This document shows positions 483 to 39,562 of a stretch of 39,562 nt of DNA, piece after piece. Each line of letters opens with the position of its first letter. Position 1 is the stretch's first letter. The stretch lies in the IMG/VR virus record IMGVR_UViG_2690316243_000006. One strand, given 5' to 3'. The translations under genes were made by a program, and so were the position numbers. The DNA is from a virus (Duplodnaviria > Heunggongvirae > Uroviricota > Caudoviricetes). The notes below the pieces were generated by a model. It was given only the letters and a program-made list of their open reading frames with translations, did no database searches and was not told the DNA's origin.

Positions 483-1220
483 TCATTCACTCTCTTTCAA
501 ACCAGTTTTAACTGTTTGTGGTTTTGGGTAAGGCTGGACTTTGAATAGCTTTGTGTTAAGGCGTTTTCTGGCTCTCTTGTCCAGAAACCGGATGTAACGA
601 AACTGACGGAATTTATGAACACTGGCTCTGTCGATATTAGCCCGCAGATGTTCACCTCGCTGTCCTCCTCGTTTGATTGCATTCTTGCAAATCTCGTGAT
701 ACCACTCGCCATCAAGTTCATAGAATGTTGTTTCATGACTGCCTACATAATCAAAATTGCTTGCCTGGTACACGACACCAAGACAGCCACAACGCTCATC
801 TGCAAACGACTGAACCCACTGCACCTGCGGATAAAGTTGTCTGATTAGTTTGAGCGCGTAACTGATTGCCCTTGATTCGGAGTTTCTCGGCATACAGTCA
901 TGCAGCCATAACCGGTTAAGCTCCATATATTCGCGGTTCTGCGTGCCAGTTACGACGCGTGCACCATTGTTTGGATTAAGGGCATAACCCCATTGCATTA
1001 CGCCAACCAGCTCCCGTTCTGAAAATATGCCCAGATGAAGGTAGGAATTATTTACGAAACGATGGCTGTAATGTTTATTGACGACGACCAGCCGGGCCAG
1101 CCAGCAACTTATTGTCTCAACCCGTAACTCACGGGAGCCATAACCGACGATATTGTCGTTATAGTGAATAAGTTCAGGCGTGCTGATGATACGGGATGTA
1201 ACTTGCTTTCTGTTCCCCAC
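483..1220 (-). CDS. mom: Mom-like DNA modification protein (start tentative: GTG at 1220 preceded by AGGAAA; the open frame extends to 1415)
   Basis: Position at the phage right end immediately downstream of, and overlapping, a Com-like zinc-finger gene, as in Mu com-mom; assignment is by synteny, not motif recognition. Confidence 0.55.
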
Positions 1221-1374
1221 GACAGGATTTCCTTGTGTATGTGGGGTGCTCTGTGGCGCTCTGAGATGTGATTTGATTGAGGGTTTTACAGCGCGGACAT
1301 TTAACTTCCAGATAACTGAAGCTGGCTCGTGCCAGTAGCTTGTTACAATGTCGGCACCGTATGTTTCGATACAT
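1174..1374 (-). CDS. com: Com-like zinc-finger translational activator of mom
   Basis: [34 protein letters not shown]...[15 protein letters not shown] resembles Mu Com (CxxC...CPRC zinc finger); ATG at 1374 preceded by GGAGG; 3' end overlaps the mom frame. Confidence 0.8.
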
Positions 1375-1520
1375 GGCCGCATAACCTCCTGCTTTGTTGT
1401 TGATATCTTTATCACTCAATCGATCGACAAAAACGATCGATTTGATTTATTTAATTGATACAACAAATAACACGAAATGTCATTAGCGAAAATTTATGAG
1501 TTTGATCACTAATTTTAAAC
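1375..1520 (-). promoter_or_regulatory. Upstream control region of com-mom with three GATC (Dam) sites
   Basis: GATC at 1422-1425, 1435-1438 and 1504-1507 in an AT-rich leader; in Mu, mom transcription is controlled by Dam methylation of upstream GATC sites and by C protein. Exact promoter not resolved. Confidence 0.45.
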
Positions 1521-1630
1521 GGTGCTGTAACGCATAAGTGCTGAATGATTGTACATTTGAATACCGCAAAGCAAACAAATCAACTAATTTATAGAAGTCA
1601 ATTGGTTAATTGCCAGCGTAAGAGGCTGCT

Positions 1631-1924
1631 ATGGACAATCATGTAACGACGAGAAATCGAAAAATGATTGAAAATGCGGAAATCTATAATGATTATTTTT
1701 CCGATTATTCAGATGCCTGCAAATACAGTTCGAGTGCGGGAGAGTTCATATGCTTCAACTTTTTTATTAAATCTTATGTTTTTCCTCCACAGCAAGAAGA
1801 TGGAGGTGTGCCACCTCCTGAAATCACTTTGCACCGTATAGCCTCCGTCTCAATGATGGAGCAACAGGCTAATGAGCTGTATAGCATTCTGGGAACGATT
1901 CTACAAAAGCGTGAATCGGACTAA
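1631..1924 (+). CDS. Hypothetical protein (97 aa) in AT-rich cargo, divergent from com-mom
   Basis: ORF with AGAGG upstream of the ATG; no recognisable motif. Confidence 0.4.
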   Translation: MDNHVTTRNRKMIENAEIYNDYFSDYSDACKYSSSAGEFICFNFFIKSYVFPPQQEDGGVPPPEITLHRIASVSMMEQQANELYSILGTILQKRESD

Positions 1925-2091
1925 TGATACCGGTTCATTTGCCTGCCCGGATGGGGAAGCAGGATTGACTGCTCCATAAGCAGCTATATTTCTGAATACG
2001 AAATACTATCCAGCGATTACATATGGCTGGATAGCGGCAAAGATGTTTTCATTAGTGTCAAACCGGCAGAGGACACCACCGGTTTGTATTG

Positions 2092-2346
2092 TTACATCAT
2101 GGTACTGTCAGTTCCGGGCTGAGCCGGGTCTGGTTGCTCTGGCTGCGCGTCGGTTTTCGGCTCATTATCAGCATCACTGGCCGCAACTGCTGGCCCAATA
2201 AGTTTTGCCAGCACTTCATCAACGTAAGTGTCGATTTGTGCCTCAAAATCCTTGCGGACCTGCGCTTTCAGCAACTTATTTACTTCACCGGAATACAGTG
2301 CCTGTTTTACCAGGTCTTCAGTGACGGTGCCTTTAATTTCTGGCAT
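2092..2346 (-). CDS. Hypothetical small acidic helical protein (84 aa)
   Basis: Strong RBS AAGGAGGA 7 nt upstream of the ATG; protein-like composition; downstream of the 60-aa membrane protein gene. Confidence 0.5.
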   Translation of the reverse strand: MPEIKGTVTEDLVKQALYSGEVNKLLKAQVRKDFEAQIDTYVDEVLAKLIGPAVAASDADNEPKTDAQPEQPDPAQPGTDSTMM

Positions 2347-2381
2347 GTATATCCTCCTTATGCGGGAATAAAGCCCTGCAA

Positions 2382-2564
2382 TCAGGGCTGGGTCGGGTCT
2401 TTTGGGAGCGGAGTTACCTGCGCTGTTTTACTGAGTTTTTCAGCTGCTGCGTCCTCAATTTTGCGGCGAACATAATTTCTGATGGCCTTATAACCACCAC
2501 TCACCAGATATAACGCACATACTGCCGTGCAGAAATACAATAAAATAAGCTGTAAAAATGTCAT
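2382..2564 (-). CDS. Small single-pass membrane protein (60 aa; true start ATG at 2564, the ORF-track start at 2576 is a TTG)
   Basis: GGGAGGG RBS before the ATG; N-terminal hydrophobic helix LQLILLYFCTAVCALYLV followed by a basic tail. Confidence 0.5.
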   Translation of the reverse strand: MTFLQLILLYFCTAVCALYLVSGGYKAIRNYVRRKIEDAAAEKLSKTAQVTPLPKDPTQP

Positions 2565-2579
2565 TATCCCTCCCAATTA

Positions 2580-2620
2580 TTGACATGGTGTTGACACCGG
2601 TAATATCTGTTAGGTAAAAA
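2580..2620 (+). promoter_or_regulatory. Candidate sigma70 promoter on the + strand
   Basis: TTGACA at 2580-2585 and again at 2591-2596; TAATAT at 2601-2606; imperfect dyad GGTGTtgACACC at 2587-2598. Confidence 0.3.
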
Positions 2621-2660
2621 GGTGCACTGCATTTTTTGCTTTGGATATAACGATCTTTTT

Positions 2661-2701
2661 GCCGCCGGTTTCTTGTTTTCCCTTACCGGCGGCATTTTTT
2701 T
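2661..2701 (+). terminator. Candidate intrinsic terminator on the + strand
   Basis: GCCGCCGGT ... ACCGGCGGC stem (9 bp, 15-nt loop) followed by a run of seven T at 2695-2701; on the minus strand the stem is followed by AAAAAG, so it is not a canonical terminator for the esterase gene. Confidence 0.45.
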
Positions 2702-2708
2702 ATCCTGC

Positions 2709-4763
2709 TTACGCGTTATTCACTTCCACCACGATACTGTCAATCAGTACCGGGTAAGTCGCATTTTTAGTGATATCGGTCACGCGCAACTTGTCTGCCG
2801 TAAACGTGCCGACCGGAGACTGCGACAGCATGAATGGTGTCCCGTCCTTACCATCAATGACCGGCGTCACCTCAATACTGTTGTTACCGGCAAAACGGAA
2901 GCCCAGCGTATGCCATTCGTTATTAAATGCGCCGAATGACCCCAGCTTCGTGTTCTGCGCCGTGTTTCCTTTGTGATACATCACGTTAAGGTCTGTGGCA
3001 TCGCTCTGTACGTAGAACGATGCCAGCAGGTTATGACCGGCATTTCCTTCCAGAGTAACCCCTTGCGGCAGGGCAGAAACCGGCCAGTACAGCGCCAGTG
3101 CGTACTGATTAGCCGTAAGCGCGCCATCGAGTTTAAAACGACAACTGACAAGACCACCTTTACCCAGCAGGTCCGCACCATTACCAGCATCATGCTCAAG
3201 GTACCAGGGGGCTCTTCCTGTTTCCTTGGTCAGTTTCATTGCCTTACCCCCGCTGGCTCCGGCATCATCCACGATTTGAGCCTTGCCACCTCCGGCAGCC
3301 CAACCCTGTGGTGTCAACCGTCCTTCAGACTCAGATGCCCGGTAAGCAAATAGCGTACTCATCGTCGTGGTGTCTGCGGGTGGCGTGGACGGTTTTGATG
3401 GTGTATCAGGTGACGGCTTCTCATCCGGTGGTGTCACGGTCTGCCCGCGCATCAGTTCAGCCGTGCGCCCTGCATGGAGCATAATAGCTGAGGCCAGACG
3501 GTCTGAAATGACGCCCCTGCGTGCCCATGAGCTGAAATGGCTGTCACGCTGTGTCGAAACAAAACTGCCCTGGGTTCGGGATGCTGCACCGTAATACCCG
3601 ACAGCCACAATATCCGGGTCTTCCGCCGGAGCATTCGTTGGCGTGCTCTGTCCATTCTCATCCGTCAGGAACGGTACAAAGAAAATTTTCTGTGCTTCCT
3701 TGCCTTTGTAGCCACCGTATACTGCCTCATATTTATCGGTGCCAGCGTTTTTCCAGTAATACGTGGTATCACCGCAAATCCACGGCACCGTGGTGGCATT
3801 TCCACTCACGCACTGCGCAGCAAGCGGAGCCAGGTCAGTTCTGAACTGCTGAACCATGGCCGTGAATAAACTATTATGCTGCTGGCTTCCTGAGGCAAGG
3901 TCTGCCTCTCCCTGCATCCAGACCACAGCCAGAAGTTTGTTTTTCGGGTTTTTCGCCAGCGCGACTTTGGTGCGGCTTACCAGGTCCTGATACAGAGGTT
4001 TACCGGCCCCCCAGCGTGAAGAATCAGCGGAAGCACCGCTGGCCTCACTGAATGAGCCGTCGGCTCCAGTGGTGAATGCTGACCCGCCACGACAACAGGG
4101 CACCAGAAGTATCCCGGCATTCTGTGGGATATAGGGAAGCAGTTTTTTGGCAATATGCAACCCCTGACCGACAGTCCCGTACTGGCCTTTTGCCAGATCA
4201 GCTTTCGGGTGGTTTATCCCGCTCATATCCTGAACATCATGCAGGCAGTGGTCTGCCGGAATGATGTCGTTGTATGTACACGACGTACCGTTGGGCGTTA
4301 CCGTACTGCGGCGTGCCAGTTGCTTAATGCGTGGGTCCGGGCGGTCAAACGAATCCGGTAACGGCAGCCCCTCGCCGTAGGCCATGCCATTTGACTGACC
4401 CGCGAGAATGACAACAAAGTAATATTCCGGCTCTGAACTGCTGCCATTCGTGCTACCGGAAGGCCCGGCGTTATCCGGTGCATTCCAGTCGGAGGGCGTG
4501 AGCGTTCCGGCCACGTCAGATGTGATTGGAATGATGCCAGTCACGCCTGAACTGGTGATTTCTGCACTGGGATTACCGGATACCGGCATTACCCATAATG
4601 GCTCTTTCGTGCTGAAGCGGATCACGCAGTCTGCGAAGGTGATCCCCCCTTTATTACCCGAAGGGCGGAAAGGGCTTTCAATAAATGCCACCGTGCCACC
4701 GGCAACCTTGACTGAAAACTCTCCGGGCATGGCGGAGAGCATTTTCCACTTGGAGTCTGACAT
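2709..4763 (-). CDS. Sialate O-acetylesterase-like protein (SASA/SGNH esterase domain, Pro/Thr-rich linker, C-terminal lectin-like domain); resembles prophage NanS-p proteins
   Basis: GQSNGMAYGEG and WMQGEADLASG motifs typical of the SASA family; linker TPPDEKPSPDTPSKPSTPPADTT; about 200-aa C-terminal domain; own promoter region after the gin terminator. Confidence 0.7.
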   Translation of the reverse strand: MSDSKWKMLSAMPGEFSVKVAGGTVAFIESPFRPSGNKGGITFADCVIRFSTKEPLWVMPVSGNPSAEITSSGVTGIIPITSDVAGTLTPSDWNAPDNAGPSGSTNGSSSEPEYYFVVILAGQSNGMAYGEGLPLPDSFDRPDPRIKQLARRSTVTPNGTSCTYNDIIPADHCLHDVQDMSGINHPKADLAKGQYGTVGQGLHIAKKLLPYIPQNAGILLVPCCRGGSAFTTGADGSFSEASGASADSSRWGAGKPLYQDLVSRTKVALAKNPKNKLLAVVWMQGEADLASGSQQHNSLFTAMVQQFRTDLAPLAAQCVSGNATTVPWICGDTTYYWKNAGTDKYEAVYGGYKGKEAQKIFFVPFLTDENGQSTPTNAPAEDPDIVAVGYYGAASRTQGSFVSTQRDSHFSSWARRGVISDRLASAIMLHAGRTAELMRGQTVTPPDEKPSPDTPSKPSTPPADTTTMSTLFAYRASESEGRLTPQGWAAGGGKAQIVDDAGASGGKAMKLTKETGRAPWYLEHDAGNGADLLGKGGLVSCRFKLDGALTANQYALALYWPVSALPQGVTLEGNAGHNLLASFYVQSDATDLNVMYHKGNTAQNTKLGSFGAFNNEWHTLGFRFAGNNSIEVTPVIDGKDGTPFMLSQSPVGTFTADKLRVTDITKNATYPVLIDSIVVEVNNA

Positions 4764-4833: not shown

Positions 4834-4868
4834 AAATTCAAAAAAGCGTCACGGTACTTTTGGTGACG
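4834..4868 (-). terminator. Intrinsic terminator at the 3' end of gin
   Basis: Minus-strand hairpin CGTCAC/GTGACG (4847-4868, overlapping the gin stop codon) followed by CUUUUUUGAAUUU. Confidence 0.55.
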
Positions 4869-5421
4869 GAGCTGGTGAGGCAGGAAAATAACGATAAAGG
4901 GTGGAAAGGCCAATATCAAATATCAGTGCGATTTGTTTACGGGACTCGCCATTAGCCAGCAAACGGGCGATTTGCTCCCGCTCTTTCTCTGTCAGTTTCT
5001 GAGGTCTGCCGCCATGACGCCCCTGAGCACGGGCAGCAGCAAGACCCGCGCGTGTACGTTCAATAATGAGTTCCCGCTCCATTTCCGCCAGCGCGCCCAT
5101 TATATGGAAAAAGAAACGTCCCATGGGAGTGGATGTATCAATATTGTCCGTAATGCTGCGGAAGTTAACGCCGCGTTGCCGGAGTTCTTCTGTTAAAAGG
5201 ACAAGGTGCTGCATACTGCGTCCAAGGCGATCCAGTTTCCAGACCAGCAGGGTATCCCCTGGCCGGAGTCGCTTTAATGCGCGTTTAAGTCCGGGACGCT
5301 CCCTTGTCTTACCGCTTATTCTGTCTTCGAAAAACAGCTCACATCCTGCACATTCCAGCGCATTTCTTTGTAGCGCCGTATTCTGGTCATTTGTTGACAC
5401 CCTGATATACCCAATCAGCAT
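4849..5421 (-). CDS. gin: Gin/Hin/Pin/Cin-family serine DNA invertase
   Basis: MLIGYIRVSTNDQNTALQRNALE... (catalytic Ser in RVSTNDQ), 190 aa, C-terminal HTH; adjacent to the invertible tail-fibre segment. Confidence 0.9.
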   Translation of the reverse strand: MLIGYIRVSTNDQNTALQRNALECAGCELFFEDRISGKTRERPGLKRALKRLRPGDTLLVWKLDRLGRSMQHLVLLTEELRQRGVNFRSITDNIDTSTPMGRFFFHIMGALAEMERELIIERTRAGLAAARAQGRHGGRPQKLTEKEREQIARLLANGESRKQIALIFDIGLSTLYRYFPASPAPSPKVP

Positions 5422-36177: not shown

Positions 36178-38286
36178 TCAGGCCAGAGGGTCATTTTCTT
36201 TTAATTTCGCTTCGAGCAACTGCAATCCCCGCTGGAAATTACGCTCGTATTCTTCATCAGGCTCATCATCAACGGCAGGTTGCTGAACGGTCACCGTATT
36301 ACCCACAGGGCGGTATATGTTTTCCAGCCAGGGCTCCTGCGGCTTGTGCTCCAGCACGTTGACAACCTCATCCTCGGCATCACGGATTTTTTCCTCTGCG
36401 CGTTTACGCATACCTTTAAGGCGTTGCTGCTGTTTGTAGTATTCCGCGCTGACCGGGAAGGCTTCGCGTTTATTGCCGTCCCATACCGCCTCGCAAATCA
36501 CGCTGCCATCCGGGCGACGTACGGTAATTCGTTCGGCATCATGAATGTCATAGCTGATAAGCACCTTGCGGCCATGCTCATCACTCAGCTCGGGCGCGTA
36601 GTAAATATTATTCAGCCAGCGTATTTCACAGCGTCTTACAGGGCGTTCCACCATTGGCCGGAACATATCCCGCAGCTCAACATCGGACAGCCATTCAATT
36701 TCCGTGTCCTCTTCTGCCAGGCGTTTTTTTCTGAACTCCGCCGGGCTGTAATGCTTCCCGTTCGGCTTCATGGGTAATTCATCGTGCGGCCGGTTGTTGT
36801 ACCACTCAACGCCATCACGAATGGCATCAATCAGTTCAGACCAGGACGGTAAATCACGCATCGCTGACTGTTGCCGGGCGTTCAGCCGTTTGCCCTGTTG
36901 CAGGGCGGTAAATGCCGAGCGTAAATCGCGGTTGGTTTTGCGTAACGTCTCGCGATCTGCACCTTTCCCGAAATAGGTGCGGTATTTACGGGCTATACGC
37001 ATCGGTAACGTGCGGTTAAGCCGTTCGATAATGCCCCGTCCCTGCGGGTTACCGGCAATCCCGGTTGGGTGATTAATCCCCAGTCGCGGCAGGATCCCCA
37101 CAACTTCCTTATCCAGGATGTCGGCGGTTTCCCCGGAACCGTTATCCGAGTAATACAGAAACGGTTTGCCGTGATTACGAATACCGTACTGTATGGCACC
37201 GGCTACGGCGAAAACATTTTCAGCCAGGTCAAGGCTCCAGCCCACCACAAAGCGCGTGCCACCGTCGATAACAAAGGTCACTTCCGGTGCAAATGGCCGC
37301 CCGTGAACCGGGTGCCTGCATTTCAGCTTCATGCCGTGACCGTCACCAATCCAGACATAATTCACCGGCATTCTGGACCAGTCGCGGCGCGTGAATCCCT
37401 CAAGCTGGCGGTATTCACTGCCGGTCACCCGGCCTTTTTGTTTCACCACTTCCGGCAGTTTCTTCATTGCGCGGCGGATGGTGTCGTAAGACGGCATGAT
37501 ATCGAGCATATAAGGCTCATCAGCGTGCCGGTGCTGCCATTCAGCGACAAAATCCTCGTAAGCCTCGGTCATTGGTCGGCCGTTTGACTGGCGATACTGC
37601 GCCAGAAATTCGGGCAGCCAGTTAATATCTTCGGCTTTTATTTCCTGGCGCTTACCAGGTGCCAGCAAAAGCAGGCGTTCAGCGGCGTTCTGCGCCTTGT
37701 TAAAGGCTGCAATCCAGCGTTTCAGCGTGATTTCACTCAACGCACGGCTGTTTCCCTTTTTGGCGTTCGCCGTCTCAACCATTGCCACAATGCGCTCGTC
37801 CAGTTGCGAACGTGCCAGGTTGTCAACGATAAACCGGATAGCCTTCGCACAGCTGAAACCAGGTTGTTGCGCGACTTTCAGAACTTCGCTGACGATCGCG
37901 ATTCGTGCATCAGCCACCTGGCGCTGGTTTTCAGTCAGGGCATTGAGGCGTTCGAGCATCAGTTGTGGTGATCCGCGATATGCCTCCACCGCATCAACCA
38001 CGGCAGGTGAGCGCCTGGCCTTTGTCACTACCGGAGCCGGTGATTCATCGGCTTTTTGCGTCATCAGTTGCAGGGCATAGCGTTCGCGTACTGCCTGCTG
38101 AACAGTTAAAGGCAAAGCCCCTATTTCACACTCTAAAACTTTCCCTTTTACCCCTGGTTTTAGCCGCGTTTTCCACGCTTCCCTCTTTGCTTTTTTGTGC
38201 AGACCTGCCAAAGAACTAGGTAGGTCACTGAATGAAATCAATTCAGTCATTGCAACCCACATATTTCCTCCGCGCACGTCGTTCAT
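36178..38286 (-). CDS. A: MuA-like DDE transposase (start probably ATG at about 38250)
   Basis: 702 aa; N-terminal LPSSLAGLHKKAKREAW domain shared with the c-like repressor; follows ner. Confidence 0.85.
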   Translation of the reverse strand: MNDVRGGNMWVAMTELISFSDLPSSLAGLHKKAKREAWKTRLKPGVKGKVLECEIGALPLTVQQAVRERYALQLMTQKADESPAPVVTKARRSPAVVDAVEAYRGSPQLMLERLNALTENQRQVADARIAIVSEVLKVAQQPGFSCAKAIRFIVDNLARSQLDERIVAMVETANAKKGNSRALSEITLKRWIAAFNKAQNAAERLLLLAPGKRQEIKAEDINWLPEFLAQYRQSNGRPMTEAYEDFVAEWQHRHADEPYMLDIMPSYDTIRRAMKKLPEVVKQKGRVTGSEYRQLEGFTRRDWSRMPVNYVWIGDGHGMKLKCRHPVHGRPFAPEVTFVIDGGTRFVVGWSLDLAENVFAVAGAIQYGIRNHGKPFLYYSDNGSGETADILDKEVVGILPRLGINHPTGIAGNPQGRGIIERLNRTLPMRIARKYRTYFGKGADRETLRKTNRDLRSAFTALQQGKRLNARQQSAMRDLPSWSELIDAIRDGVEWYNNRPHDELPMKPNGKHYSPAEFRKKRLAEEDTEIEWLSDVELRDMFRPMVERPVRRCEIRWLNNIYYAPELSDEHGRKVLISYDIHDAERITVRRPDGSVICEAVWDGNKREAFPVSAEYYKQQQRLKGMRKRAEEKIRDAEDEVVNVLEHKPQEPWLENIYRPVGNTVTVQQPAVDDEPDEEYERNFQRGLQLLEAKLKENDPLA

Positions 38287-38488
38287 ATCTAGTAGGCCAA
38301 ATAACCTGTGGCTCTACACCTATAGCCCTAGCAATTATCTTTTCACCTTTAGGGTAGGGAACTCGCAAAGCATTACCCAAAGTCCTAGGCTGCAAATTAT
38401 TTTCCCTTGATAAACGTGACAAATTGGTATCGCGTTTTTCTAAGGCTGCCTTTATATCGGCGGAAGACCAATCTTCAATAAGACTCAC
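38243..38488 (-). CDS. ner: Ner-like DNA-binding regulator (GTG start, AGGGGG RBS)
   Basis: DWSSADIKAALEKR...LGNAL...YPKGEKIIARAIGVEPQVIWPTRY resembles Mu Ner. Confidence 0.8.
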   Translation of the reverse strand: MSLIEDWSSADIKAALEKRDTNLSRLSRENNLQPRTLGNALRVPYPKGEKIIARAIGVEPQVIWPTRYERRARRKYVGCND

Positions 38489-38704
38489 AATGGCCCCCTG
38501 TGTACTTTCTATGGCAAACTTTATTACTCATGTGTGCTACTCTATTGAGTTACTCACTAGTGTATGTTTGATATGTTAGATATTAACTTAGTAAATATCA
38601 ACTGGTTAATTTCAAATTTTTAAATTTGCTCTGTATCTATTTGTTTTTTATTGAGTTATTTTTGAAATAAACCACATAAAGATATAAACAAAAGTTAATA
38701 TCAA
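38489..38704. promoter_or_regulatory. Divergent early promoter / operator region between c and ner
   Basis: AT-rich 216-bp spacer between divergent genes with reiterated TTACTCA motifs; in Mu this spacer holds the operators, Pe, Pc and the transposition enhancer. Confidence 0.5.
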
Positions 38705-39223
38705 ATGGAGTTTGATATGATCCTTGACCAAGAATGGATCCTTGCCAGTGACTTGTTGGGGGTTGGAGGTCTTCCTTCATCTCTGGCTGGGCTTCATAAA
38801 CGAGCAAAAAATGAAGGATGGGAAAAACGTTCGGTAACTACACCTGGTATCAGAGGGAGAGCATTTGCCTACCGTTTAAGCGACTTACCTGCACATGTTG
38901 TTTCCATCATTACAGGTAGTGCAGAAATAAAACACCAGCCCCCTCAAAAGAACGGTGGCAATAGCGAGTTGCTCGAACTCATCGACACTTTGAGCCAAGA
39001 AGAGCAAGAATTAGTTATTTACACCTTGAGAAGGAAAGGGGTAGAAAAATTGCTGGAATTCTGCAATCAAGAGAATCAAGAGTTGATCGCTTTAACAGGT
39101 ATTCGACGCCTGGCAGCATTGAGCCTTAATAATTTATCAGATCAAAAGGTTAGAGAGATTTTCGAGGGAGATGAAACCAAGGATCATCATTTCAATTTAA
39201 CCCATAAAGAAGCCAAAGCGTAA
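38705..39223 (+). CDS. c: Mu c-like repressor
   Basis: 172 aa; N-terminal ...LPSSLAGLHKRAKNEGWEKR domain homologous to the transposase N-terminus; divergent from ner. Confidence 0.7.
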   Translation: MEFDMILDQEWILASDLLGVGGLPSSLAGLHKRAKNEGWEKRSVTTPGIRGRAFAYRLSDLPAHVVSIITGSAEIKHQPPQKNGGNSELLELIDTLSQEEQELVIYTLRRKGVEKLLEFCNQENQELIALTGIRRLAALSLNNLSDQKVREIFEGDETKDHHFNLTHKEAKA

Positions 39224-39354
39224 CCCCATGAAGCCCAGGCCATGCACTTAGCGAGCACTTTCAACTTGATTTGTGACCAGATCGATATTGATATAAACTT
39301 TTTAGCATAAAAGACATTTTAAGTACTTTTAAAAACGTCCATAAGCAGTATGTG

Positions 39355-39534
39355 CAGTATCAAATTTGTTGCCGATACCTTAATTTTATACCGGATTTTA
39401 TTTAATCAGTATCAAAACTAAACAACCTCCAGAATCATCGATCACCTGTTTTATTTCAGTATCTTACAGGTGATTTCACCTCCTTTCACTAAAACCCTTG
39501 TCGGTATCAAATGATTTACCTAGTTACATGTACA
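39355..39534. repeat. Phage left-end (attL-like) region with repeated putative transposase-binding motif
   Basis: CAGTATCAA at 39355-39363 and 39407-39415, CGGTATCAA at 39502-39510, inverted relative to TTGATACCG at the other end; phage ends ...TGTACA at 39534. Confidence 0.55.
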
Positions 39535-39542
39535 GCATCTGG
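39529..39542. repeat. Right copy of the 14-bp direct repeat TGTACAGCATCTGG; contains the inferred 5-bp duplication GCATC (39535-39539)
   Basis: Identical to 351-364. Confidence 0.7.
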
Positions 39543-39562
39543 TTTTTGTCGTTCTCCCCCAG
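39535..39562 (-). pseudogene. vgrG: Host vgrG-like gene, proximal fragment upstream of the insertion point (partial at window edge)
   Basis: Reverse complement reads LGENDKNQMLY, in frame with the fragment at 1-361. Confidence 0.45.

Follow-up and report, generated by a model that had tools for sequence, protein, structure and literature searches.

The stretch of DNA analysed here, in the following referred to as the window, comprises the 39,562 nucleotides of the IMG/VR virus record IMGVR_UViG_2690316243_000006 and, as judged from its open reading frames (ORFs) and Pfam matches, begins at the right end of a Mu-like Escherichia coli prophage in reversed reading direction. At this end of the Sakai Sp18-type prophage, the block under study, positions 1420-2708, forms a mosaic of three parts, a control region, a variable slot and the end of a cassette. 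The last part, 2058-2708, is distal in a portable cassette that is headed by a NanS-p-type sialate O-acetylesterase gene, and the two small minus-strand genes of the block, encoding proteins of the Pfam families DUF1378 and DUF826, are part of this cassette. The identity and the architecture of the parts can be stated with high confidence, and the explanation as a whole, i.e., the mosaic, the esterase-cassette tail and the roles proposed for its products, is regarded as probable. The features on which the argument is built are the following:

1420-2708: block under study, between com and the esterase gene
1375..1475, minus strand: upstream control region of com/mom, Mu-like backbone and not cargo
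1476..2057: hypervariable slot, bounded by the com control region and by the hairpin downstream of DUF826
1631..1924, plus strand: orf97, 97 amino acids (aa), acidic with a pI of 4.7, ribosome-binding site AAGAGG at 5 nt
2058..2085, plus strand: hairpin AAACCGG...CCGGTTT, then GTATTGTT; forms the slot's right border
2092..2346, minus strand: DUF826 protein, 84 aa, Pfam PF05696, ribosome-binding site AGGAGG at 5 nt
2382..2564, minus strand: DUF1378 protein, 60 aa, one membrane helix, Pfam PF07125, ribosome-binding site GGGAGGG 4 nt from the ATG
2589..2618, plus strand: predicted promoter of a small RNA (sRNA), with TTGACA at 2589-2594, an 18-nt spacer and TAAAAA at 2613-2618
2622..2703, plus strand: predicted sRNA gene, EcOnc33 allele, ~75-82 nt with ends ±5 nt, antisense to the esterase-DUF1378 spacer
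2709..4763, minus strand: NanS-p-type sialate O-acetylesterase (predicted activity), 684 aa, SASA and DUF6645, first gene of the cassette

The three protein-coding ORFs of the block were found exactly where an initial annotation of the window had placed them, i.e., at 1631..1924 (plus strand, 97 aa), 2382..2564 (minus strand, 60 aa) and 2092..2346 (minus strand, 84 aa), and reading of the sequence revealed good ribosome-binding sites for all three. The annotation had also recognised no Mu gene among them, which is borne out, as no homologue was found at the gin-com junction of Mu-type phages and the ORFs lie on accessory DNA in a Mu-like prophage. Its view of a single cargo block beginning at 1420 does not hold, however: the first ~55-64 nt (1420-~1475/1483) are conserved com/mom backbone control region, which an alignment showed to be common to the FORC069, CI5, M18 and Sp18 prophages until ~1475-1483, with divergence beyond. 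The segment that follows, ~1476-2057, is wholly different between lineages in the alignment of the sister prophages, and homology resumes at the hairpin 2058-2085 just past the DUF826 stop codon; the coverage classes of a megablast search break at query position 641, corresponding to position 2060 of the window. Moreover, the minus-strand pair is not a separate island but continues the 684-aa esterase gene at 2709-4763, beyond the coordinates of that annotation, and the 97-aa ORF does not form one unit with the pair, as unrelated ORFs take its place in the slot of sister prophages. The annotation had overlooked a plus-strand sRNA gene, ~2589-2703 including its promoter.

The cassette is best introduced by its first gene. 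The esterase matches the Pfam families SASA, an esterase domain of SGNH type (E = 1.5e-13), and DUF6645, its C-terminal domain (E = 7e-68), and is, from residue ~94/109 on, 66% identical to VT2-Sap44 of VT2-Sakai (residues 94-684, including the GQSNG motif) and 76% identical to ECs1527 of Sp6, consistent with a predicted NanS-p-type activity. The N-terminal ~100 residues (window 4476-4763) are assigned to no Pfam family and show no relation to the N-terminus with DUF1737 that lambdoid versions have. Because these residues are unrelated while the remainder is 66-76% identical, a recombination joint is placed inside the esterase gene by this comparison.

On the minus strand the order of the cassette is esterase (4763..2709), DUF1378 (2564..2382) and DUF826 (2346..2092), and the same order was found in 40 comparison loci. 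These loci comprise two contexts. In every lambdoid locus examined, including Sakai Sp6, VT2-Sakai, PhiR12_4, 1720a-02, further E. coli prophages and a Citrobacter prophage, the order is Q, (stx), esterase, DUF1378, DUF826, class II holin and endolysin, with the cassette placed between Q/stx and the pinholin gene S. In Mu-like prophages, which occupy many unrelated chromosomal insertion sites, it is tail-fibre assembly, invertase, esterase, DUF1378, DUF826, a variable ORF, com and mom. The cassette of the window has neither flanking lysis genes nor Q/stx; the slot and com-mom come after it and a Gin-type invertase before it, i.e., it has the Sp18-type placement.

Compared to the nanS-p region of lambdoid/Stx phages (VT2-Sakai; Sp6 ECs1527-ECs1530), the window agrees in the three genes, in their order and orientation and in the antisense sRNA unit of the spacer, at identities of 66-76% for the esterase, 52-65% for DUF1378 and ~40-47% for DUF826. 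It differs in what surrounds the cassette, the slot and the com-mom of a transposable phage following it instead of holin-endolysin and a Gin-type invertase instead of Q/stx preceding it, and in the N-terminal ~100 residues of its esterase, which lack DUF1737. An identical architecture is that of the Mu-like Sakai prophage Sp18 (ECs4992-ECs4998), in which invertase, esterase, DUF1378, DUF826, an opposite-strand ORF, com and mom are found with the Hfq-bound antisense sRNA EcOnc37 in the same spacer, and in which the com/mom DNA is 94.6% identical. In contrast, the cassette alleles of Sp18 and the window differ (esterase DNA ~70% identical, DUF826 DNA 79%), the body of the sRNA is unrelated (spacer 52% identical, the window having an EcOnc33-type body), and the slot ORF of Sp18 encodes an unrelated 154-aa protein and not the 97-aa protein.

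Among phage records, 342 carry the C-terminal domain of the esterase and 309 carry DUF1378; this census rests on these two, as tblastn with the 84-aa DUF826 protein recovered only 2 records, the lambdoid alleles being too diverged. In every DUF1378 locus examined, an esterase gene, intact or degraded, lies immediately upstream, whereas prophages of enteropathogenic E. coli (EPEC) E2348/69 have the esterase and the holin but not the pair. Because each DUF1378 locus has the esterase while the EPEC prophages have an esterase without the pair, the dependence read from these loci is one-sided: the pair accompanies the esterase, and the esterase can do without the pair. In related prophages, in which the initial annotation had proposed to check the conservation of the block, the pair is conserved together with the esterase and orf97 is lineage-restricted.

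The 60-aa ORF encodes a full-length DUF1378 protein (109.4 bits against a cut-off of 25, E = 9e-32, model positions 1-58/59; PHROG 494, E = 1e-32). It had been described as a single-pass membrane protein, and one strongly hydrophobic segment is indeed present at residues 3-21 (Kyte-Doolittle 2.27), with a basic tail behind it. Alignment of the family reveals as common features the helix 3-21, an invariant SGGY motif, a basic juxtamembrane helix KAIRNYVRRKI and a variable tail, and from the positive-inside rule an N-out/C-in topology is predicted. Homologues are nearly restricted to Escherichia and Shigella, with one Citrobacter case, and DUF1378 is intact in nearly all cassette-bearing loci examined (a 76-aa variant with an altered tail in three, two unmatched by the motif search).

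The 84-aa ORF encodes a DUF826 protein (58.7 bits against a cut-off of 25, E = 6e-16, model positions 1-58/75; PHROG 311, E = 5e-28), and its description as acidic and helical is in agreement with a pI of 4.2 and with the AlphaFold model, which has one long helix (residues 20-50, pLDDT 84-95) and a disordered tail. In alignments, the N-terminal ~51 residues are almost invariant; a variable linker, acidic and rich in Pro and Glu, connects them to a short conserved motif at the C-terminus. Of the profile and fold searches suggested earlier for the block, the former identified two of the three proteins and left orf97 an orphan. The Foldseek search with the DUF826 model against the PDB gave 0 matches; a PDB sequence search with profiles of DUF1378 and DUF826 gave nothing under E = 0.39, i.e., matches at chance level only.

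Both genes are under purifying selection, with dN/dS values of 0.14-0.27 for DUF1378 (Fisher p about 2e-5) and 0.08-0.21 for DUF826 (Fisher p about 2e-8). Because the substitution patterns show purifying selection, DUF1378 and DUF826 are, on this comparative evidence, genuine genes and not chance ORFs. The selection is also seen within Mu-like contexts, where no holin is adjacent: for DUF826 compared to the locus L005, dS is 0.85 and dN/dS 0.17, and for DUF1378 compared to the locus L003, dN/dS is 0.14.

The stop codon of the esterase gene and the start codon of DUF1378 are separated by a 144-nt spacer that carries the sRNA unit on the plus strand. Its terminator, a GC-rich hairpin with its stem at 2660-2693 followed by T7, ends 6 nt from the esterase stop codon, and the predicted fold of the RNA (-26.7 kcal/mol, z = -3.96) is better than those of all 200 shuffled sequences. 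Eleven distinct spacer alleles retain the promoter boxes and the terminator, while the RNA body varies by allele group: a TTGACN-N18/19-A-rich hexamer pattern is kept in all alleles despite the differing bodies, and the terminator stems vary yet stay paired (GCCGCCGG/CCGGCGGC, GCTGCCGG/CCGGCAGC, CCGCCAGC/GCTGGCGG). The promoter is in register with the mapped 5' end of PasA, an EPEC sRNA discussed below. A simple promoter scan had skipped it, as the rule used demands a T at position 6 of the -10 hexamer. Furthermore, the spacer is 83% identical to that of Sp6, compared to 51% at the third codon positions of DUF1378, and this high identity fits constraint acting on the spacer sequence.

An RNA of this class has been recovered experimentally. 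EcOnc33 was crosslinked to Hfq in E. coli O157 Sakai, where it is encoded on the minus strand of prophage Sp6 and gives a northern band of ~71 nt, and EcOnc37 was also recovered with Hfq in this strain (Tree et al., 2014, PMC4104026, supplementary tables). The target of the EcOnc33 northern probe is found exactly in the esterase-DUF1378 spacer of Sp6 and matches at 30/35 positions at 2624-2658 (plus strand) of the window, and EcOnc37 falls into the same spacer of the Mu-like Sp18 after correction for a genome-version offset of +128 nt, which was checked against the position of the EcOnc33 probe. By this comparison the RNA of the window is an EcOnc33 allele with predicted expression, and EcOnc37 is its positional counterpart in a Mu-like prophage. 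PasA and PasC are prophage sRNAs of EPEC (Pearl Mizrahi et al., 2021, PMC8550237; Zhu et al., 2026, bioRxiv 10.64898/2026.05.13.724894); they have the same position and orientation after the esterase gene and share the promoter and the 5' start motif with the RNA of the window. EcOnc33, EcOnc37, PasA and PasC are all short, Hfq-associated antisense sRNAs located just 3' of a prophage esterase gene, with a TTGACA-type promoter, a variable body and a strong intrinsic terminator. The window allele, a predicted RNA of this type, shares the start motif of PasA/PasC (TGCACTGCA in the window RNA, TGTACTGCC in PasA/PasC) but the bodies of PasA and PasC are not alignable with it, and EPEC has tandem sRNA units and neither DUF1378 nor DUF826. 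In EPEC PP2 (L007:2766-3050), these units lie between esterase and holin and consist of PasA and an esterase-proximal PasC-like unit, each with a TTGACA promoter and a terminator. Rfam contains no EcOnc33/Pas-type family, and the search against it gave a sub-threshold match to Esr41 only (RF02676; 22.2 bits against a gathering score of 102, E = 0.76); this candidate was rejected, as the match covers mostly the terminator and Esr41 maps to SpLE1 and not beside nanS-p.

The slot between the control region and the cassette contains the 97-aa ORF in the window and in CI5, a 66-aa minus-strand ORF in FORC069-type prophages (L002), a 175-aa ORF in M18 (L006) and the 154-aa ECs4996 in Sp18 (L022); the 97-aa ORF and the alternative slot ORFs that were scanned belong to no Pfam or PADLOC family. 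For orf97 the start codon at 1631 is preferable to the internal start given in RefSeq, as M1 and the ribosome-binding site are kept whereas M12 is a Thr in the CI5 variant. Its dN/dS is 0.36 (Fisher p = 0.004), a value from the one informative comparison only, with 15 synonymous and 24 non-synonymous changes. The relatives retrieved by a word-indexed search were limited to 14 near-identical clusters from Escherichia and Shigella, HMMER, run exhaustively against 1.84e9 representatives, gave only its own cluster, and no match was obtained in Pfam, PHROG, NCBIfam or PADLOC; the AlphaFold model is poor (pLDDT 52.7). These data suggest that orf97 is probably a real gene, an orphan to which no function is assigned. 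It is dispensable for this prophage type and stands outside the DUF1378/DUF826 unit. The hairpin 2058-2085 at the border of the slot is kept in all four aligned prophage types, with a stem of 7 bp in the window and 10 bp in the others, and is likely a terminator for plus-strand transcripts of the slot. A 96-aa protein (P0154) was encountered in which the first ~35 residues of DUF826 are joined to com-upstream sequence, i.e., a deletion variant that lacks the rest of DUF826 and the entire slot.

The block had been called AT-rich, which is true overall, its GC content being 42.6% compared to 53.7% window-wide (9th lowest among 766 windows of equal size), but not uniformly: the GC content is 33% in 1420-1630, 40% in orf97, 45% in DUF1378 and 50%, near the backbone value, in DUF826, so that the com-upstream region and the 97-aa ORF are the source of the low value. 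The most AT-rich portion of the window is 38000-39562 (GC 0.38-0.42 in 1289-nt windows), which is below the block itself. Annotated DNA 100% identical to the block is present in 14 complete E. coli genomes, and parts of the block are present in 350/5426 genomes; megablast with the block gave zero phage records, and matches to it in the phage collection were only Mu-like insertions within two Stx phage records.

How the cassette might work can be outlined from its layout. No sigma-70-like promoter was recognised on the minus strand of the spacer, either by the promoter scan or by reading the sequence, the spacer hairpin has a T-run on the plus strand only, and the scan found neither a terminator nor a convincing promoter between gin and the esterase gene. 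Because of the missing spacer promoter, the one-sided U-tract and the missing gin-esterase terminator, the simplest assumption is that esterase transcripts also cover DUF1378 and DUF826. Both proteins would be translated from such read-through transcripts, which perhaps start at or upstream of gin. DUF1378 would be placed in the inner membrane with its N-terminus outside and its basic helix in the cytoplasm, where DUF826 would reside as a long helix with an acidic tail, and the basic membrane-anchored helix might pair with the acidic soluble one. Such a membrane-anchored pair could serve the esterase cassette at the cell envelope, candidate roles being the timing or the manner of exit of the signal-less esterase or the protection of the membrane during late expression. 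This envelope role of the two small proteins is put forward tentatively, as a possibility for which the chances are clearly below even. For the sRNA, an action in trans via Hfq, as for the EcOnc and Pas RNAs, is most likely. It may in addition act in cis, convergent transcription and full complementarity limiting read-through into the membrane-protein genes in the lysogen; such a damping of esterase read-through is conceivable, although we would judge it slightly less likely than its opposite.

Several points weigh against an envelope pair working for the esterase. The esterase works in the EPEC prophages PP2 and PP5, which have no pair, and the pair is accordingly not required for it. The constant adjacency could stem from a shared recombination history and not from a shared function, the pair is equally tightly linked to the holin gene in lambdoid phages, where a lysis-related role is equally compatible with the data, and mosaic ancestry could account for part of the excess of spacer conservation over that of silent sites. 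The topology of DUF1378, its contact with DUF826 and the co-transcription of both with the esterase are predictions, which calls for caution. Finally, the annotations and experiments found assign no function to DUF1378 or DUF826, both being listed in PHROGs as of unknown function, and the sole paper found that discusses them mentions them merely as ORFs between nanS-p and S; a literature search by locus tags (ECs4993-4996, ECs1528/1529, Z1467, L0106/7) gave nothing relevant.

The link to the holin gene leads to the first alternative, in which the pair is a lysis accessory that modulates the pinholin/SAR-endolysin system and is merely carried along with the esterase in Mu-like prophages. In all lambdoid contexts a holin gene of class II (Phage_holin_2_1) directly follows the pair, within ~60-80 nt of it, and a single-pass membrane protein could interact with holins. 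However, Mu-like prophages keep the pair intact under purifying selection without a neighbouring holin, at dS values of up to ~0.9, the same holin-lysozyme genes occur in EPEC PP2 and PP5, which lack the pair, and neither Pfam nor PHROGs shows similarity to known holins, antiholins or spanins. Because selection persists in Mu-like prophages without an adjacent holin, the esterase-linked role at the inner membrane is favoured over lambdoid lysis, which we consider unlikely.

The initial annotation had offered a toxin-antitoxin, superinfection-exclusion or abortive-infection module, for which the analysis gave no support: no family match was obtained, and the pair lies directly behind the esterase gene in all contexts examined. 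In the form of a protein toxin-antitoxin or abortive-infection system, a 60-aa membrane toxin would be neutralised by the acidic 84-aa protein and would stabilise the prophage or kill infected cells. The arrangement itself is suggestive of this, as the gene of a small hydrophobic protein is followed 35 nt on by that of an acidic partner, both with strong ribosome-binding sites, a basic cytoplasmic helix and an acidic partner would suit a direct complex, and the pair is always co-inherited, under purifying selection and on accessory DNA. In contrast, no toxin, antitoxin or defence match was obtained in Pfam, NCBIfam or PHROGs, and a PADLOC scan, which covered the esterase and four alternative slot ORFs besides the three ORFs of the block, yielded a single match, of DUF826 to PbeC (E = 0.0076, 12.9 bits), which is too weak to be taken as real. 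Moreover, the putative antitoxin has no DNA-binding domain and no promoter or operator of the pair's own was recognised, the lambdoid pair lies within the Q-dependent late operon, which is the place of lytic-cycle genes and not of addiction or defence genes expressed in the lysogen, and the pair is never apart from the esterase in the loci examined. Taken together, this makes a two-protein toxin-antitoxin system a quite improbable explanation.

A toxin could also be controlled by the RNA. Small hydrophobic membrane-protein genes with a divergent sRNA gene are known from the type I loci tisB/istR-1, zorO/orzO and shoB/ohsC. The window resembles them in having such a gene with a divergent small RNA gene directly upstream; it differs in the larger protein, the conserved soluble partner, the location of the gene in an operon behind a 2-kb enzyme gene and the occurrence of the RNA without the protein gene. 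Applied to the block, DUF1378 would be the toxin, its leader would be bound by the divergent antisense sRNA 2622-2703, and DUF826 would be an extra component. The sRNA gene lies immediately upstream on the opposite strand with its -35 box 25 nt from the DUF1378 start, a DUF1378 mRNA starting in or upstream of the esterase 3' end would be perfectly complementary to the entire sRNA, the promoter looks constitutive and relatives of the sRNA are abundant Hfq-bound RNAs in uninduced lysogens, and this layout is kept in all aligned DUF1378 loci. However, PasA and PasC are found at the same position in prophages without DUF1378. Because they occur without it, the sRNA is tied to the 3' end of the esterase gene rather than to DUF1378. 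Furthermore, relatives of the sRNA have many trans partners on Hfq, and the complementary region lies 58-139 nt upstream of the DUF1378 start and not at its ribosome-binding site. To our knowledge, DUF1378 with its 60 aa and long hydrophilic tail also exceeds type I toxins in size, which counts against this explanation. A type I system is accordingly even less probable than one made of two proteins.

Least probable of all, and hardly to be expected, is superinfection exclusion by a small inner-membrane protein that is expressed in the lysogen and blocks DNA entry of related phages, as the HK97 moron gp15 reportedly does: DUF1378 is a predicted single-pass inner-membrane protein encoded in prophage accessory DNA, and the Mu-like context may allow transcription in the lysogen together with gin and the esterase, no terminator lying between them, but no match to known exclusion families was found, the late-operon position in lambdoids argues against lysogen expression there, and the antisense sRNA would oppose read-through in the lysogen.

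The envelope role proposed for the pair can be extended into a bolder one, in which esterase, sRNA, DUF1378 and DUF826 would function together as a single device that is passed between phages of unrelated types. The pair would then be a membrane machine for the exit of the esterase or for holin-independent membrane damage, and the Hfq-dependent sRNA would silence it in the lysogen. If true, the device would combine a type I toxin-antitoxin switch with a system for enzyme release; the combined claim is a long shot.

The genes that flank the block complete the picture:

483-1190, minus strand: mom (Pfam Mom, E = 2e-77)
1174-1374, minus strand: com (Zn_ribbon_Com)
4849-5421, minus strand: Gin-type invertase (Pfam)

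Upstream of com, the GATC sites at 1422 and 1435 lie inside an inverted repeat at 1418-1442. GATC sites at this place fit Dam-methylation control of mom, as in Mu. The inverted repeat is perfect (AATCGATCG...CGATCGATT) and was scored as terminator-like by a simple scan; a third GATC is found at 1504. The com gene of an identical prophage is labelled as frameshifted in RefSeq. This was rejected, as there is no indel compared to Sp18, FORC069 and L023, and com looks intact. The mom frame is open upstream across com, giving a 310-aa ORF (483-1415, minus strand), and an otherwise syntenic Mu-like prophage (L041:5331-6383) has, directly after com, the gene of a PF00145 cytosine-type DNA methylase instead of the Mom gene. 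Similarity to Sp18 starts at window position 363, and repeated TTTGATACCG motifs at 370-420 resemble transposase-binding end repeats. The right end of the prophage and the junction to the host may lie near ~360.

As a summary, every element of the block is already catalogued: the two small proteins as Pfam DUFs, orf97 as a hypothetical orphan ORF, the sRNA through the EcOnc33/37 class and the arrangement through Sp18 of a reference genome. As a unit common to lambdoid and Mu-like prophages, the cassette may be a modest new point; a paper describing it as such was not found, the literature searched including that on NanS-p with Mu-like prophages. For the annotation of the region, three ORFs that had seemed unassignable become two catalogued families that travel with a prophage sialate esterase and one lineage-restricted orphan, and an sRNA gene of an experimentally supported class is added that is absent from the genome annotations examined. 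NanS-p esterases enable pathogenic E. coli to exploit the O-acetylated sialic acids of mucus, and sRNAs at the position 3' of the esterase gene rewire host regulation via Hfq. Although it is not by itself a new kind of system, the selection acting on the cassette in lambdoid as well as in transposable Mu-like prophages suggests that the small proteins serve the cassette itself and not lambdoid lysis, and it is a concrete, testable reason to characterise DUF1378 and DUF826.

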